DNA of 63,718 nt, filler included, from Craspedostauros australis (GCA_030167865.1; 13 parts of 13 records of this genome joined end to end with filler, not necessarily neighbours in it); one strand, 5' to 3'; shown: positions 8,362 to 62,494, counted from the first letter of the whole stretch. The notes: generated by a model from the letters alone, not told the origin. Numbers and translations are program-made.

Positions 8362-9668
8362 CCATGGAGAACAAGACCATCTATGGCGCTGACATTTACA
8401 ATGCATTTGCTGAGGCTTCTTGTGGTGCACAGAAGTACTACATGCCTGTTGATAGCCCCTTTGCTGAATGGTGACAGTCGTAGGGACGCGCACCCATTCC
8501 GTGTGGCTGCATTACTCTCATCAGCAAGAATCTTCAGGGTCATTCCTGAGCACTATGGCAGTGGGCGGTGCACATCGATGCACAGCTGCAGCACATGGGT
8601 TTCAGGCCCATCATGCATACTCTATGCCTATACCGCGGCGCTTACAAAGAACACAACATGCTCTTTCTATGTCAGGTTGATGACTTTGCCATTGCATGCA
8701 GCGATGTAGCGGCTTGCTCCACGATCTGCGATGAGCTTGGATTCGTTCCTGTTCATTCCCATGAAATNNNNNNNNNNNNNNNNNNNNNNNNNNNNNNNNN
8801 NNNNNNNNNNNNNNNNNNNNNNNNNNNNNNNNNNNNNNNNNNNNNNNNNNNNNNNNNNNNNNNNNNNNNNNNNNNNNNNNNNNNNNNNNNNNNNNCTCAC
8901 TCCAATGGATGATGGCAATGCGCACATACGCAAGCTGGACGATTCTGAAGCCTTGGATGCATGCGGCCTCAAGCAGGCACAGACAGACATTGAATGCTAT
9001 TGTGAGGCTATTGGTGAACTCATCTGTCCTATGATCACCTGTAGGCCAGCCATCGCTTTTCCCATCGTGAAACTCTTGCAATTCTTGGCGAGGCTGGCCA
9101 TAGATCATTTNNNNNNNGCCAAGCAGGTTTCTCGATATCTCTTCCACACTCCCGCTCAAGGCATCGCGCTGCATTGCACCGACGCTGTCCCTGCACTACT
9201 GCCCATGCCTGTTCCAGCCAAGCAAACGCCAGTGCATGATGATGCATTTGGCCATCCAGCAGAACAACCCAATGTCCTCTAAAGGTATGCTGACAGTGAT
9301 TGGGCCATGGATATTCAGCAACAACAGTCGGTGTCGTCCATCGTTTTCCATCTCGCTGCTGCTGCTGTCGCATGGAAACCAAGAGTGCAGATCACGGTCG
9401 CCATGTCCAGCACAGAGGCTGAACCTCTCTGTGCTTCCGATGCTGGCCACATGGAATTCTGCATTTGTTGCATCCTTGACAAGCTTGGTGTACTTCAGCG
9501 GGGTGGTACGGTGCTGTACGAGAACAACTGAATTGCGCTAATGATGGCCAATGCACGGCAGCCCTCGCGTCGCACACGCCACGGCGCCATTCGACATTTT
9601 GCTGTTCAACAGTGGGTGGAAAACAGCCACATTGCGTTCGCAGAAACTTGTCTGCTTTGATCGCTGCC
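8362..9668 (+). mobile_element. Degenerate Ty1/Copia RT-RNase H fragment (CoDi-like)
   Basis: IYGADIYNAFAEA, LFLCQVDDFAIA, EAIGELICPMITCRPAIAF, GYADSDWA, AVAWKPRVQITVAMSSTEAE and LYENN. Homologous by eye to the RT in 60405-62394. Confidence 0.9.
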
Positions 9669-16153: not shown

Positions 16154-19100
16154 ATGACAGACGACACTGTCGACACAGAAGCGAGTAGGCTAAACGATGC
16201 TTGCAGGGATGCGATGACTACGAAGTCGGGAGATACGATACGAATTGTATTTCAGAACGCATCTCAGATCCCCATCCATTCATACCAACAGAAGAATGAA
16301 GAGATCTTTGACTTCATCAAGACGAGCAATCTGGACGTGCTATGCATGGCAGAGACCAACGTGAGATGGGACTACGTTCAGCCGGCAGACCAGTGGGCCG
16401 AACGAGGGCGACGGATGATACCCAGGTCAAAGCACGTGTTCTCATACAACACCCACGAAACAAAACGCGATCCTAGAATCTACGGTGGAGCAGGAGTAGT
16501 GACGACTGCCCAACTGGCAGCTCGCACCTTTCAACACGGTGTCGATGAGAGTGGTATGGGCCGATGGTGCTGGACACTGTCGGAAGGCAAAGGTGGCAAG
16601 TCCCTCAGAGTCATCGCGGCCTACAGGCCGTGTCGATCCACCAAAGGAGACAACACGGTATGGGCGCAACAAGTGAGGGCGCTGGCCGAGGAAGGCCGAG
16701 TCGAAGACCCTCACGAAGCTTGGGCCAAGGACTTGCAGAACGAACTACGACGATGGAAGGCACAAGGAGAGGCCATTGCCCTGGGAGTGGACCTGAACGA
16801 CGATTCCCTGGATAACGTAATATCCAGACAGCTCACCGCAGTTGGTCTGAAACACGCAGTCGAGGGCCGTATTGGGCCAGAATCACGCAGGGCTACCCAA
16901 CAACGGAACCAAGGGGAAGTGCCAATTGACGCCATCTACGTCTCGGACGGAGTACAAGTGTCCAAAGCAGGCTATCTGGCGTTCGGGTCTGCCATCCCAT
17001 TGGACCATCGCGCAGTCTGGCTGGACATCAGCTTCTCCCAGGTCTTGGGATCAGGCATCAAGCCGGTGAAATCCGGCTCTCCAAGACGGCTCGTGCTAAG
17101 TGATGCGAGGGCGGTGCAACGCTACAATGATGCGCTCCTCGAGGAGTACGGGAAACACAGCATACAACGGCGAGTGGAGAAGATGCTGAAGACGGCGAAA
17201 GCCCAAGGATGGACGCTGATGCGTGATCAACGATCACAGTTCGACAAGCTCCTGGAACAGATCAATCAGATACGAAGGTTTGCAGAGAAGGGATGCAGAA
17301 AGCTCAAAATGGGCGGAGTCGCATGGTCCCCGGAAATGCAGCGTTCTCGTAACGTGATCAAGCACTGGTCTTTAGAGGTGAAGCATCTCTCTGGAATGAA
17401 AGTCAGTTCTTCCCTGCGACAACGTACCAAGAAGCTAGTCGGTCTGGTCGAAGGCGAGTCCCTGCAACACGCACAGCACATGCGCACTGAAGCCTACAAA
17501 ACCTACTACGCCCAGAAGAAGGATCACCAAAAAGCACGACAAGACCACCTGGTGCAAATGCCTTGGCAGCGACATGACGCGAACGAGCAGGAGTATGAGG
17601 CTGCCCTCAAGACGCTGATGAATAGGGAACGACAGCGCGAACAAGCTGGCCGTCTACGAGCGGCGTTTGGGCGCGGCAAGTCCATGACCACGAAAGTACT
17701 GTTCACCGACGACGCCGGACAGGTACACGAGTGCGACGAACAACACGAGATCGTCTCCGCCTGCATCAGAGAGAACAAGAAGCGGTTCTCACAGGCCAAC
17801 CGCACCCAATGTATGGTCGGACCAGGCAAAACCCTCATGGACCGCATCTGGGTCCCGGAACTAGCGAAACAGTTGATCGCAGCAGAAGGACCGTGGCCGT
17901 CTTCGATCGATCCGATGGTCCGAACTCTTCTGGAGTGCCTCGAGCCTGTCGACTCAGACGATACCCAGCTGGAGGTGAAAGATCATGCGAAGGCCTGGCG
18001 CAAGCAGACAGAACTCACAAATTCCGAACCGAGTTGCCCGCACTTTGGGCATTACAAGGCGGCCGCACAGAATCCCGCACTTGCCCGCGTGGATACCATC
18101 CTAAGAGAGATCCCGTATCAAACTGGCCATTCTCTGAAGCCGTGGCAATGTATCACCGACGTCGAGATACTCAAGAAAGCGCAAGTGTTCAATATTGAGA
18201 AGATGCGCACGATTCAACTGATGGATGCGCAGTTCAATTTGAATAACAAGCGACTCGGCAGACAAATGATGCGAACAGCGGAAGCGGCAGGATGGCTGTC
18301 AGGATTCCAGTTTGGAAGCAGGAAGCGCAGGTCGGCGATGAGTGCAGCGCTGAACAAGCGACTCACCATCGATCTGGGATATCAGCGAAAAGTCGCGCTG
18401 TCCTTTTGCTCCAACGATGCGAAATCGTGTTACGACAGAATCGTTCCAAACTTCGCCGCGGCAGCGATGATGGCTGCAGGGGCCAATGCTTCGGCCACAC
18501 GGTGCATGTTCAAGACCCTTCAAGACGCACGACACTTCATCAGCACAGCCTACGGTGTCTCCAGCCGGTACTACGAGAAAGACGCGGAATGCGATATGCA
18601 TGGAATCGGCCAGGGTAATGGAGCAGGCCCAGCGATCTGGGCTGTCATCAGCTCGGTGATGTTCAAAGCCATGACCCGGCTGGGACACACGTCGTCGCTG
18701 ATTACTCCGTCAGGAGAATATATACCCATACTGGGGTCGGCCTTTGTTGACGACACGGATTTGATCAGAATCGAGCTACCGCAACGAAACGACGCAGATG
18801 TCTCCAGCTTTCGAAGGACGGTTCCAGACTGGAGCTGCCTTCTTCAGGTCACAGGAGGAGCTCTGGTTCCAGAGAAATCAGCCTGGTGGGCCACGCAGCC
18901 AGCGTTTGTCAAGGACAAATGGGTGTGGAGCGACAGCGAGACTTCGGTGACCATCAGCATTGACGATGGCCGAGGAGGAAGTGCAGTAATCCCGAGCAGG
19001 ACGATGTCACAGCCAGTGTTTACACTGGGGGTGTTCATCTCGTTCGATGGGGACAACGAGGAGCAAATCCAGACCTTGCGGACGAAAGCAGAAGACTTCG

Positions 19101-21915
19101 GCGGAAGGATGCGCATGGCGCAGATCTCCCCGGACGACGCAAGGTCGGCTCTTACCCTGCGGTTCATGAAATCCATCGAGTACGTCATGCCGGTTGTCCA
19201 GCTCACTCCTCTGCAGTGGCGATACATCATGGCCCCAGCCTTGCTGGCAGCCTTGCCAAAAATGGGATGCTCGCGGACTTTGCCCCGGGACTTAGTGTAC
19301 GGCACGAAGTCGCTCGGCGGTTTGGGTATCGTCAATCCGGTGAATTCTCAGCTGATTGCACAGATCCAGCTGGCGTTCGACGAAGTGTTCCAAGAAACTC
19401 AGACGGGCAAGATGATTGTCTGCTCTATACAAGCACTCAAAGAAGAGCTGGGGGTGGGAGGATCTCTATTCCAGCGCTCGTTCTCCAGCATGGGGCACTG
19501 CGCAACCAGATGCTGGGTATCCGGCCTATGGAAGCAGCTTCAGGGAACAAGTATTGAGGTGTGCGAGTTCTCGTCATCTTGGAAGCTCCAATGGAAAGGA
19601 GATGCCTTCCTCATGGATCTATGGACTCAGCAACACGTGAAAGGCGCACAGCTCTACCACCTGAACATGGTTCGCCACAAGATGGGGGTGATGCGCATGT
19701 CGGACATTGTGTCAGCAGATGGCACCAGAATACTGCCTGAAGCGCACGATGGCACTCTGACGTCCGGAATGCCACAGCGATGGGCACGACAACCCGAACG
19801 GCTTCCCAGTGGCTGGTGGAAGGAGTGGCAACAATGGTGCAAGTCGATGTGCTTTTGAGGCCTGCTTCTGGACAAGCCCCTCGGCAGATGGCAGAGAGAG
19901 GACGGGACTTGGCGCTGGTGGAAGGCACCGTACCAGGACGATATTTTCGACTTGGACGTTGAACCAGTTCTTCGCTATCGACCTCTCCCACGACGGCGCA
20001 CCCGACGCCGGCAGTACTCTTTGGCCACGCCTGCTACTGTGGTCCCAGCCGGCCTCAAACGAGTCTCGGTCGTTTACACTGACCAGGGCATCGAATGGGA
20101 CGGTCATATCGGATTGACGTGTCCTCTAGAGGAACCGGCTCCTGCATACGAGCCAATCGAAAACATGCGAGGGACCATCCCCATGCAGGAAGTGGCTCGG
20201 GCCGCGAACAGGGGCAATTTGGTGCTTGTGAGCGACGGTTCGTTCAAGGATCAGCGGGGCACTTCGGCATCAATCGCTTATGATGTACAGTCGAAGGAGT
20301 ATGTCTACTGCCAGACGTTCGTCCCAGGGCCTCCAGAGGTCCAGAGCGCCTAAAGAAGCGAACTCGCCGGAATCTGGGCGTCCCTGGCAATGGTGGCAGA
20401 GCTCCCCGGATTACAGGACGACTGTACCATCACCATAGCTCTTGACGGTAAGCAGGCGCTCCTACAAGCTCAAGAGAACTACCTGAGACCGCACCAACGA
20501 CACTGGGATATCCTCACCGAGATCCGACAGCTCCGACGCTGCATCAAGGCCACGCTGAAATGGGTGTGGGTGAAAGGCCATCAGGATGACACAGGCAGGA
20601 AACTAACGCTATTGGAACGGCTCAACGTGGAGATGGACGCGAAAGCAAAACAATTCTGGTCCGACACGGGCTCCAGGCCACACGTGAAAACCTGGGTGAC
20701 TGCCACAGGTCGATGGAGGCTCCGCCTGCGTGACGCCGACCATTCTCATGTGGATCCTGAGGCCATGAACGAACTCCTTCAAACGGCATCGGCGATGCAA
20801 TACTGGTCTACAAAATTCCAGTGGAATCAGAACCAGGTTCGCCAGATCGATTGGCGCGTGTACAAGACGGCGCGGCAGTCCAAGCTGAACCGTGGGACGG
20901 TGCGTTTCATCTCCAAGTGGGCTTCCGGCTTTGTGGGGGTCAACCACAAACTCCATCACGAATGATTCTGGCCTGCTTGCGTGCTCAGGATGCGAAGTGG
21001 AGCACTCTCAGGCACACAGATGACAGTCTTCTATTGCTTATCTGTTGTTGGTGTATTGCTGATACACTCCTTGTTGTGAACCAGATTGTGACCGCATGCC
21101 ATGAATCCAACAAAGACACATGCTCTGTTCGTTTTTCCCTTTGTGTTGTTTCAGCCACAAACACTCCGCCTCGGTTACTTATGACTGTACGGTCACAGAA
21201 TCTTTGACCAATACGAGCTACGCAACTCGTTTGACCCTAAAACTTGCTCTATCAGACTGGCCAACTACAGACGCCGAAGTGCAAGTTCTGCAATCACGAC
21301 GAGACCACTCAACATGTTCTCCGGTGCCCGGAGCATCACGAAGCGTGGACTGAGGCTACTTCAGGCCTCATTGATCGCATGGTGACGATTGGAACAGCCC
21401 CAAGGCTGGTCCAACGCATGTGGGTTGGTCTCGTGAAATGGAGAAGGAACACTCGGGCCAGCGATGTGCAAAGTGAAATTGGGTGGTACCCTCTCATGCT
21501 AGGGTTTCTCCATGAGGATTGGGCTCTACATCAGGCCCGCTGGATGACGACGCATGAGTGCCGGTACCCAGACGCCAACTCTTGGGCTTGGGAGGTCGTG
21601 CGGTGGATCTGGAAAATCCCCTGGGAAATATGGTTGGCACAGAATGCGAAAGTGCACGGCGAAGAACAGCATCCTACGGTACAGGACTTGCGGCGCAAGG
21701 TTCGCCGAATGATACAGGGTGCAAGCCAGGATATGAACGAAGCGGAGATGCGGCTGTTCCGGGAAGGACGCCATGTCGAACATGGCACCGAGGTTCAAAT
21801 GCAGCAGTGGGTGAACGCTATGATAGCCGTTCATGCGGCGGTGAGAGCGCGGCGTCGATCGCGGTCAATGCATGCTGAGAGGCGGGCGTTGGCGGCTTGG
21901 TTGGGGCTATCATAG
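16154..21915 (+). pseudogene. LINE ORF2: apurinic endonuclease, reverse transcriptase, RNase H, Cys/His finger
   Basis: APE motifs (IVFQN, LCMAET, GVDLN, PIDAIY, LDHRAV), RT motifs (FCSNDAKSCYDRI, GIGQGNGAGP, AFVDDTDL), RNase H (LVSDGSFK, RSELAG, IALDG, WVKGHQD, NVEMDAKAK) and CKFC..ETTQHVLRC. Interrupted by TGA 19856-19858, TAA 20351-20353 and a 296-nt insertion. Confidence 0.93.
20959..21246. mobile_element. About 288-bp insertion into LINE ORF2 with an imperfect 8-bp duplication
   Basis: Flanked by CTCCATCA (20951-20958) and CTCTATCA (21247-21254). Removing 296 nt restores VNHKL(H/Y)QTGQ, colinear with VNKKLLQTGQ in the second copy. Confidence 0.8.
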
Positions 21916-60304: not shown

Positions 60305-60404
60305 NNNNNNNNNNNNNNNNNNNNNNNNNNNNNNNNNNNNNNNNNNNNTTAATTAATTAANNNNNNNNNNNNNNNNNNNNNNNNNNNNNNNNNNNNNNNN
60401 NNNN

Positions 60405-62394
60405 GGGGAACGATATGTCCGGACGGCACGAAACCATGGCCCAAATCAGTTCACCAATGGCCTGCCGATAACTGAAGAACGATGCCTGTAGTTGTCGCCG
60501 CTCTCCTTCAGTAGCTGGGACGTCTGCACTGTCCAGTTGTCGAATGTACCCGTTGTCCGCGCGCATGGGGAGTCGTTGCGACGACCGAAGATCTTGCCAT
60601 CCATGCTTTTGGAGCACCTTGTTCAGGTATGTGGTGCAGTGTACTGTCACATGTGATCGGCCCTGAGTGAGGTCAAGCCCATTGTAGTGGGAGAAGAGTC
60701 CATGCCTAGTGATAGGTTGATTGAGTTGCTCGTCAAGCAAATCACAGAACGCGATGTAGGTGTGCCGTCGTGATGTGGCGACTGCGAAGTCATCGACTTG
60801 CCGGAGTATGAAGACACGCTCACCGCGGATGAGTCCAGTGTAAAGGCACGGGGCGTGCGTGGTGGATGTCAGGCCCATGCGCTTCATGATCCCATTGACA
60901 TGGATGCTCCATTGCCGAGGCGCCTCAGGATGACCCTGTAGGTTCTTGAGAACGGGCACAACATGGCCACGAGGAATGGTAGCACCATGCTTCTGCTCCC
61001 ACCACGAACGGAATTGATCGTCCACCTTCATGTAGTATCGTTGCGCGCTGGCCGGAGCTTCGGCAAAAGCATTGGCGACGTCAGCCCCAAAGATGAGCAG
61101 GCGTTGGACGGCAGCAATAGCAACAAGGATGCGAAACTCAGTGAGATCTGGCGTGGCAGCGTAGGTATGACCAAAGACACGGACGTTGCCCCCTCGAGTG
61201 GAACCATCGCAGACTGCGCGGGCCTTCTTGTGGTTGTTCTCATGGGTCTTCACAACATACACCCACACCCAATTGAACACCGCTGCACCGGAAGGAGCAT
61301 CCACTGGATCACCGAACATCCCTTGATGGTGGTATTGCTCCATCTGCTTGAACTCCGCAGCTTGCCACTCATCCCAGTCATCCCGCAGCAACAACTTGCG
61401 GCGTGTGAGCTTGGGAGCATCAGTGACAGCGCGAGCCTGCGGCGAAATCTGTCGAAGGACGTCCTGGACATGTCGAAGCTGGTCGAAGTAGAGCTGCGGG
61501 ACACCCTGTTGTGACAGCGCGTTGCGTGCCTCATCAAAAGCGAAGATCGCGACGATTGGACCTGCCTTGCATTGTCGTGCACTCGAGATGATACGAACGA
61601 CTTCATCACCACTGGAAATGTCTGTGCCATCCAGTGTGAGCAAATGTGCAGACCGGAGACGTGACCGCCATCGGGGAATGCGAGCAGCCGGAGTGCCAGG
61701 TGTACATGTCTGCAGCTGCAGCCGCCCTCGCGCATCGTCGTGCACAAGCACCAGTCCAGCACACGGGTCCGAGCCAGACACCTCAATGTCTTGTGCGAAT
61801 GGAAAACCGAAAGGTTCGCTTGCCATCTCCAGTGATCGCGCAAAGCGACGAATGGTGGAAGAGCACGCTGCAGCGGCGGCGTGTAACTCGGAATCACCGC
61901 ATGTCACGCAGGACTCGACCAGGACGCGGTGTCCACCGGAACCGTCGACTGGGACACTATCACCCTTCACCGGGATCGACGTGTCAACGCCATGAGGTGC
62001 GTGAAATCCCAGCTCGAACAAAAGCTGCGGTCCCGGAGGTCGACTGCTGGACGTGAAGTGAGCCTCGTCGAACACGATGTTGCCAGCAGTTTTGATGCGG
62101 CCAGAGTCCAGGTCGTAGTATCGATGAAGGGTTGGCGTTGCAGTGTGCCCCACGAAGACGCCATTGTAGGTATGTACGTCGAGCTTCGCAGGCGGATGCC
62201 CAGGTTTGCGAACAGTGACGCGGGATCCAAAGACACGCAGGTGTTGAAGATCAGGCTTGACCCCATGCTGGAGTTCGTACGGCGTCTTGGAGATGGACGC
62301 ATGCCACAGTCGGTTCTTCAAGTAGACCGAATGCACAAGTGCAAGGGCCCAAAACTGTGGCTTGAGACCAGCCGAGTATAGCAGAGCCCTCGTC
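60405..62394 (-). mobile_element. Ty1/Copia (CoDi-like) pol fragment: end of integrase, SH3-like, PDZ-like insert, RT; uninterrupted frame
   Basis: YLKNRL..KTPYE..PDLQHLRVFGS..KLD..GVFVG..IVFDE, then WVWVYVVK..KKARAVCDG, GADVANAF, LKNLQGHPEAPRQW, LRQVDDFAVA and YRQAIGELIW. IN precedes RT. Confidence 0.95.
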
Positions 62395-62494
62395 NNNNNN
62401 NNNNNNNNNNNNNNNNNNNNNNNNNNNNNNNNNNNNNNTTAATTAATTAANNNNNNNNNNNNNNNNNNNNNNNNNNNNNNNNNNNNNNNNNNNN

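Follow-up and report, generated by a model that had tools for sequence, protein, structure and literature searches.

In Ty1, Ty5 and the chromoviruses, the determinants that target integration follow shortly after the C-terminal domain of integrase. The chromodomain of chromoviruses recognizes methylated histone tails, the C-terminal tail of Ty1 integrase binds AC40, a subunit of RNA polymerase III, and the targeting domain of Ty5 integrase binds Sir4. Long terminal repeat (LTR) retroelements have also captured enzymes: dUTPase is found in retroviruses and some Gypsy elements, and DNA methyltransferase reportedly occurs in LTR elements of dinoflagellates and charophytes. Orchid Gypsy elements are reported to carry an ALKB demethylase (PMC9289625). 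In diatom genomes, the dominant transposons are reported to be Copia-like elements, which respond to stress by activation (PMC2806351). Here, we analyzed a stretch of 63,718 nucleotides, filler included, from Craspedostauros australis (GCA_030167865.1), hereafter called the window, which contains a fragment of a Ty1/Copia Pol polyprotein on its minus strand. Between integrase and reverse transcriptase (RT), this fragment almost certainly carries a real, highly diverged PDZ-fold domain of ~90 residues, which is a fixed component of Pol in a Copia lineage.

A preliminary description of this DNA had claimed an intact peptide of about 87 residues at 61536..61796, placed in the integrase-RT linker of a Copia polyprotein and following the order of PDZ motifs. 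The 85 residues quoted there match 61539-61793 on the minus strand exactly, 61536-61796 being one residue longer on each side, and they correspond to residues 201-285 of a 663-codon open reading frame (ORF). The plus-strand reading of 61536-61796 contains many stops and was ruled out. The PDZ-fold core covers ORF residues 199-286 (61536..61799, minus strand) and comprises β1-β3, α1, β4-β5, α2 and β6. When a 171-residue query was modeled by AlphaFold2 with an alignment of 61 sequences (A1), the predicted local distance difference test score (pLDDT) was 95-98 over query residues 41-130, and the elements appeared in the order strand, strand, strand, helix, strand, strand, helix, strand. When all 663 residues of the frame were modeled in a second AlphaFold2 run, with a separate alignment (A3) of 62 full-length relatives picked by RT similarity, the same PDZ elements were recovered with a pLDDT of 90-96. 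The predicted arrangement of six strands and two helices, β1-β2-β3-α1-β4-β5-α2-β6 in a partly open barrel, is that of a PDZ fold, and the loop directly before β2 has the x-hydrophobic-G-hydrophobic pattern of PDZ domains. Foldseek comparison of the short model with the PDB gave 37 matches at an expectation value (E) ≤1e-3, with template modeling scores (TM-scores, normalized to the target) of up to 0.70; all 41 rows listed were PDZ domains, the "extended" PDZ of 6rqr among them. Among the viral structures of BFVD, no match was obtained at E ≤1e-3, the best being weak giant-virus PDZ proteins and no retroelement. PDZ families were also nearest in a protein-language-model atlas (scores of 0.84-0.90), which is a lead only.

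The PDZ-fold reading is therefore one supported by structure prediction and by conservation among relatives. Of the motif order claimed earlier, the strands, PG[ST]PA, DG, the helix and the final strand hold, whereas the "GD" of L..GD.I is missing and R-W-R-S-R-L-R is found instead. The expected match to the PDZ fold came from AlphaFold2 and Foldseek and not from any significant sequence profile. The gathering thresholds of the Pfam PDZ sequence families (PF00595, PF13180, PF17820 and others) were not reached, and the segment, as modeled, shares the fold while lying outside the existing PDZ sequence families.

To define the spread of the domain, phmmer was run with the segment and its surroundings (171 residues) against 1.84 billion cluster representatives. 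At E ≤1e-3 it matched 417 proteins, 88 of them at E ≤1e-10, with query residues ~29-159 as the conserved part; a word-index search with the PDZ region alone returned only 2 and 1 matches. The 55 listed matches of at least 300 residues were scanned with Pfam. SH3_retrovirus, gag_pre-integrs, rve, RVT_2 or dUTPase adjoined the match in 43 of them, 11 lacked such a family (ten had none at all, and P0009 had sub-threshold PDZ/DUF matches only), and the remaining one, P0075, is a spurious repeat protein. No cellular domain architecture was found among these 55 relatives. A segment-independent test was made with only the RT part (residues 332-663) as the query and proteins of 1,162-3,315 residues. 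This search gave 334 proteins at E ≤1e-10, the best 120 of which showed 40-59% RT identity, and the PDZ-segment profile was found in all of these best 120 of 334, the worst independent E value being 2e-15. The closest RT relative among those listed (59% identical) derives from a marine transcriptome collection, and the named organisms among the listed relatives are all diatoms: Thalassiosira oceanica (two proteins), Skeletonema menzelii, Cyclotella meneghiniana and Chaetoceros tenuissimus. The PDZ domain is universal in this lineage, and its acquisition is old and not sporadic. As a separate observation, P0009 (347 aa) consists of two near-identical tandem copies of the linker and PDZ-like domain, which reflect either an assembly artefact or a duplication within an element. 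Among the matches listed, no other protein has a weak Pfam PDZ_2 score (E 0.0014 in P0009).

Selection on the domain was assessed with 15 pairs among 24 metagenome loci fetched with the window peptide. Synonymous sites were saturated in most of the 15 pairs, with nonsynonymous divergence (dN) of 0.22-0.60, and in one pair the amino acid identity (74%) exceeded the nucleotide identity (68%). The ratio of nonsynonymous to synonymous divergence (dN/dS) was 0.13-0.19 in the three pairs with estimable dS, and the other pairs are too diverged, so this is a qualitative statement only. As would be expected for transposons, stops or frameshifts mark several of the 24 loci as decayed copies. These values, read from the sequences, indicate that the PDZ domain is under purifying selection. 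The segment is thus conserved among related elements, as the preliminary description had required of a true domain. Its proposal of a captured peptide-binding module survives in part: the fold and the loop and groove residues are kept, whereas a one-off capture is at odds with the lineage-wide presence of the domain.

Residue conservation was measured in an RT-selected alignment of 63 sequences and in a separate set of 106 domains. In the 63 sequences, the PDZ core is 87-94 residues long. The putative carboxylate-binding loop, just ahead of β2, reads C-A-G-L in the window copy (ORF residues 211-214, 61752..61763, minus strand) and H-P-T-[A/L]-G-L in the family consensus; its glycine, G213, is invariant in 63/63 sequences and present in 95% of the 106 domains. 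Conservation extends to the hydrophobic positions of β2 and α2, which in PDZ domains form the lining of the peptide groove. In PDZ domains, an arginine or lysine a few residues upstream of the loop helps to hold the ligand carboxylate. About half of the 106 domains have K or R at the pre-loop position, and 80% have a histidine four residues before the glycine. The clearest departure from canonical PDZ domains is found in the α1/β4 region, where the usual G-L-x-x-G-D gives way to a family-specific basic stretch, R-I-P-R-W-R-S-R-L-R (ORF residues 238-247, 61653..61682, minus strand). This stretch includes W242, invariant in 63/63 sequences, and has R/K at position 238 in 60/63 and at positions 243 and 247 in 62/63 each. 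Compared with canonical PDZ domains such as LNX2 PDZ2 (7qct), GIPC2 PDZ (3gge) and NHERF1 PDZ1 (1g9o), identity in structural alignments is 9-24%, and the Copia domain sits in a retrotransposon polyprotein, whereas the canonical ones belong to scaffold proteins.

The polyprotein fragment is stop-free across the whole 1,990-base contig 60405-62394, its 663-codon frame (60405..62393, minus strand) running off both contig ends. It begins with the tail of the integrase catalytic core (ORF residues 1-42, 62268-62393, minus strand), followed by the integrase C-terminal SH3-like domain (ORF residues 43-113, 62055..62267, minus strand; Pfam PF25597 SH3_retrovirus, E 4.5e-14; pLDDT 78-95). Linker 1 (ORF residues 133-191, 61821..61997, minus strand), of variable length in relatives, then leads to the PDZ core. 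RT occupies ORF residues 331-663 up to the contig edge (60405..61403, minus strand), with a PF07727 RVT_2 match at 60588-61304 (E 1.3e-13) and a pLDDT mostly of 88-97. The aspartates of its YxDD motif, D534 and D535, are invariant in the 63 RT-selected sequences. With SH3_retrovirus upstream of RVT_2, a Copia-type RT, the claimed location of the segment in a Copia polyprotein, after integrase and before RT, is confirmed. Both its RT family and its domain order, which in Ty1/Copia Pol runs protease-integrase-RT-RNase H, place the element in the Copia type. The window copy is a fragment, and LTRs, gag and protease fall outside it; it is 51% identical to the full-length polyprotein P0003 over 686 columns. 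In full-length relatives, Pol has the order gag_pre-integrs, rve, SH3_retrovirus and then RVT_2. Across the 63 sequences, the distance from the SH3-like domain to the PDZ domain ranges from 85 to 264 residues, the window copy being the shortest, and a conserved motif that follows the PDZ domain (see below) lies 16-121 residues ahead of the RT start. Both PDZ flanks are predicted to be disordered, with a pLDDT of <50 at residues 133-191, 289-307 and 316-325 of the full-length model.

The PDZ domain thus resembles a bead on a string, held apart from the integrase SH3-like domain and from RT by linkers predicted to be disordered. We propose that it would still work as a peptide-docking, probably C-terminus-docking, adaptor; would stay on integrase after polyprotein processing; and would attach the integration complex to a nuclear or chromatin protein of the host, as the counterpart of the chromodomain in chromoviruses and of the integrase C-terminal tails in Ty1 and Ty5. 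Four features count in favor of this proposal: fixation in the lineage, purifying selection, the kept loop and groove hydrophobics, and the position after the integrase C-terminal domain. We lean toward the peptide-docking adaptor as the probable mode of action. A host-tether role of the domain is put forward tentatively, and the whole chain of steps, tethering included, falls somewhat short of probable. The most specific version is rather doubtful: across a diatom-centered Copia lineage, the PDZ domain would hold a conserved nuclear or chromatin protein of the host by its C-terminal tail, and the element would choose its integration sites in this way.

The likeness to the described targeting devices is one of analogy. 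As in chromoviruses, an accessory domain that may serve protein interaction comes next after the integrase C-terminal domain and is fixed in the lineage; the chromodomain, however, has another fold, belongs to Ty3/Gypsy and not to Copia elements, and lies at the end of Pol, whereas the PDZ domain is internal, RT following integrase. Ty1 and Ty5 share with the window element membership of the Copia superfamily and, if the proposal holds, a targeting determinant between the integrase fold and RT. Their determinants are short linear motifs in disordered tails, in contrast to a folded 90-residue domain that would bind the motif of a partner, so the polarity of recognition would be reversed.

Several observations weigh against the proposed docking role, or against the PDZ assignment on which it depends. 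Pfam returned no family for the window segment even at E ≤10, and in 61 family members only sub-threshold matches were obtained (PDZ_6 in 9/61, PDZ_2 in 4/61, and PDZ_1, PDZ_3 and PDZ_Tricorn in 1/61 each), with best E values per PDZ family from 0.0046 (PDZ_1) to 0.12 (PDZ_Tricorn), none of which is significant. A family profile gave six non-significant matches to PDB sequences (E 0.13-2.9), all in the β4-α2-β6 region of the PDZ domains of DegQ/Protease Do and the Lon-like YlbL, and single-sequence phmmer against the PDB gave no meaningful match. Since no sequence profile reaches significance, the fold rests on predicted structure. The PDZ domain also evolves faster than its SH3-like and RT neighbors, the mean pairwise identity among 13 full-length proteins being 0.33 for the PDZ core, 0.45 for the SH3-like domain and 0.47 for RT (0.24 for linker 1). 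Ahead of the loop, the window copy reads V-S-G-S-D-P and has no R/K, leaving the usual PDZ basic residue without a counterpart; because this residue is gone and the α1 region now carries the basic R-W-R-S-R-L-R, the ligand may not be a peptide. The flanking linkers are disordered and variable, and the PDZ domain may belong to either mature neighbor. In addition, ~40% of relatives have a dUTPase between integrase and PDZ, an order that suits assignment of the domain to RT no less than to integrase.

A different use of the same groove would be self-recognition in the particle, where the PDZ domain would bind a peptide of its own polyprotein, either a C-terminus made by the protease or the motif G-x-P-x4-D-Q-L. 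Such binding could keep integrase and RT joined once they are cleaved, set the sequence of processing steps, or recruit Pol products to the particle. The motif (G-V-P-Q-L-Y-F-D-Q-L in the window copy, ORF residues 297-306, 61476..61505, minus strand) is the most conserved feature of the region, with G297 in 62, P299 in 59, D304 in 62, Q305 in 63 and L306 in 56 of the 63 sequences; the 24 metagenome loci, for which the search patterns included P-Q-L-Y-F-D-Q-L and which are therefore biased to the motif, were left out of these counts. Its distance from the PDZ end is fixed (minimum and median of 18 residues, maximum of 28) even though the linkers on both sides vary widely. In the full-length model it falls within a predicted disordered stretch (pLDDT <50), as short linear motifs and protease sites do, whereas in the short model it forms the start of a helix (pLDDT 73-86). 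The two models disagree, and on the latter the motif may be a structural part of the domain, as in "extended" PDZ. The constant spacing and the conservation of the motif in a probably flexible stretch point to a coupling with the domain, but a plain helical extension explains them equally well. The motif, moreover, occurs once per polyprotein, with no second D-Q-L copy and hence no set of cleavage sites resembling one another. In three related elements (L001, L010 and L016), the C-termini of Pol and of the gag-like ORF1, checked as self-ligands, are neither conserved nor hydrophobic. A complex prediction with two copies of the PDZ domain plus helix, which scored 0.11 against a mark of 0.32, counts neither for nor against. 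The presence of the domain in every one of the best 120 RT relatives fits a core replication role, and the non-significant profile matches fall solely on PDZ domains of proteases. PDZ domains of HtrA, Tsp and Lon-like proteases read C-termini, and there, as in Copia elements, the PDZ domain is part of a protein system that includes a protease. The protease likeness has its limit in the strand order: the PDZ domains of bacterial proteases are circular permutants, whereas the Copia domain retains the canonical arrangement. Taken together, we regard self-recognition as unlikely.

It is more improbable still, in our view, that the PDZ fold has been reused without peptide docking, the domain serving as an N-terminal accessory to mature RT or to a dUTPase-PDZ-RT product. 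It would then contact nucleic acid or acidic lipids through its conserved basic face, or act as a rigid spacer. This would suit the four R/K positions around Trp242, three of which are R/K in 60-62 of the 63 sequences, in a stretch that replaces the usual α1 motif, and also the loss of the basic residue before the loop in the window copy. The placement of dUTPase upstream of the PDZ domain, ending 18 residues before it in L010, further suggests that the integrase boundary lies upstream and that PDZ goes with RT. The invariant loop glycine and the conserved groove hydrophobics would be hard to explain if the groove were unused, and with the variable and predicted disordered linker between motif and RT, the PDZ domain is not rigidly joined to RT. 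Finally, the segment could be no real domain at all, its PDZ likeness having arisen by chance in a decaying linker or through an assembly chimera of a host PDZ exon and a transposon. The contig is only 2 kb long and belongs to a patchwork of short contigs, and Pfam detects no PDZ in it; yet hundreds of proteins and contigs independently show the same architecture, no stop interrupts the frame anywhere in the contig, amino acids are kept where synonymous sites are saturated, and two AlphaFold2 runs gave a pLDDT above 90, which makes this explanation hardly credible. Docking of the integration complex to a host protein remains, tentatively, the reading that we prefer.

LTR retrotransposon lineages with a fixed accessory domain are known, and a PDZ domain in that role is unreported in the literature searched. 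No description of PDZ in an LTR retrotransposon was found there, most subscription journals and the Repbase and InterPro annotations lying outside that search. Like the captured dUTPase, methyltransferase and ALKB, it is an extra conserved domain fixed inside Pol; those are enzymes and occur occasionally, whereas the PDZ domain is a putative docking domain and universal in its lineage. A non-enzymatic, scaffold-type fold is hereby added to the short list of domains fixed in LTR retroelements. The CoDi elements (Maumus et al. 2009, PMC2806351) are likewise Copia-type and abundant in diatoms, the source of all named RT relatives listed above. Membership of the window element in CoDi is plausible on the basis of these diatom relatives, as distinct from a comparison with reference CoDi sequences. 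The main text of PMC2806351 contains neither "PDZ" nor "dUTPase", a check that did not extend to its Additional file 1 with the per-element features.

A domain that is invisible to Pfam yet recognizable by structure prediction implies that the annotation of such polyproteins is incomplete. As a universally kept putative docking domain, it may also offer a mutable handle, consisting of one glycine and one tryptophan, on site choice or assembly. If the proposed tether is true, it would be a retroelement targeting device of a new class, with the reader domain on the element and the short motif on the side of the host, and it would provide a handle to steer or trace insertions in diatoms.

The relatives differ most visibly in linker 1. 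In 23 of the 55 scanned relatives (P0020, P0046, P0026, P0034, P0037, P0094, P0090 and 16 more), this position between the integrase SH3-like domain and the PDZ domain is occupied by a full dUTPase (PF00692, E down to 1e-37), and the window copy, with the shortest linker of the 63 sequences, has none. Several of these retrotransposon polyproteins are named "dUTP diphosphatase" or "dUTP pyrophosphatase" by their sources, so counts of dUTPase in algal metagenomes partly count transposons. In a preprint (bioRxiv 10.64898/2026.09.23.753693), PF00692 dUTPase in algal metagenome proteins is classed as a non-transposon "genome maintenance" domain, and the dUTPase signal disappears on copy-number normalization; dUTPase-bearing Copia polyproteins offer a simple explanation for this vanishing signal as it is reported there, one that the authors of the preprint may have overlooked. 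No paper on dUTPase in a diatom retrotransposon was found in the literature searched.

Two dUTPase-bearing elements, at L010:2758-7404 and L016:2931-5483, illustrate the organization outside the window fragment. Both have a gag-like ORF1 without a Pfam match, followed by Pol with gag_pre-integrs, SH3_retrovirus, dUTPase, the PDZ-like domain and RVT_2; rve scores in L016 only, where the RT part is set off by a frame break. L016 also has an 80-nucleotide, LTR-like direct repeat with copies 7.7 kb apart. In these related but diverged elements, ORF1 and Pol lie in the same frame and are split by a single UGA (GAA TGA GAT; L010:2629-2631 and L016:2922-2924), which directly follows a similar acidic tail in both. 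This arrangement suggests, at the sequence level, programmed stop-codon readthrough between ORF1 and Pol. Other relatives are single fused proteins of ~2,600-2,700 residues.

The remainder of the window consists of short contigs chained by spacers of 44 N, 12 nucleotides and 44 N (e.g., 60305-60404 and 62395-62494, which flank contig 60405-62394), the 12 nucleotides encoding L-I-N-stop. Because the window is made of joined short contigs, there is no evidence of linkage between genes across a spacer. On its other contigs, long frames free of introns code for ordinary proteins of eukaryotes (cullin, ankyrin repeats, DnaJ and methyltransferase). A second, different Copia-type RT fragment at 8379-9063 (plus strand) is 43% identical to the RT studied here and is interrupted by N runs; it is the sole other Copia piece within the window and does not include the integrase-RT region. 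At 16154-19858 (plus strand), a 1,234-residue ORF has an N-terminal endonuclease/exonuclease/phosphatase domain as its sole Pfam match (E 1.2e-6) and could be ORF2 of a non-LTR retrotransposon.

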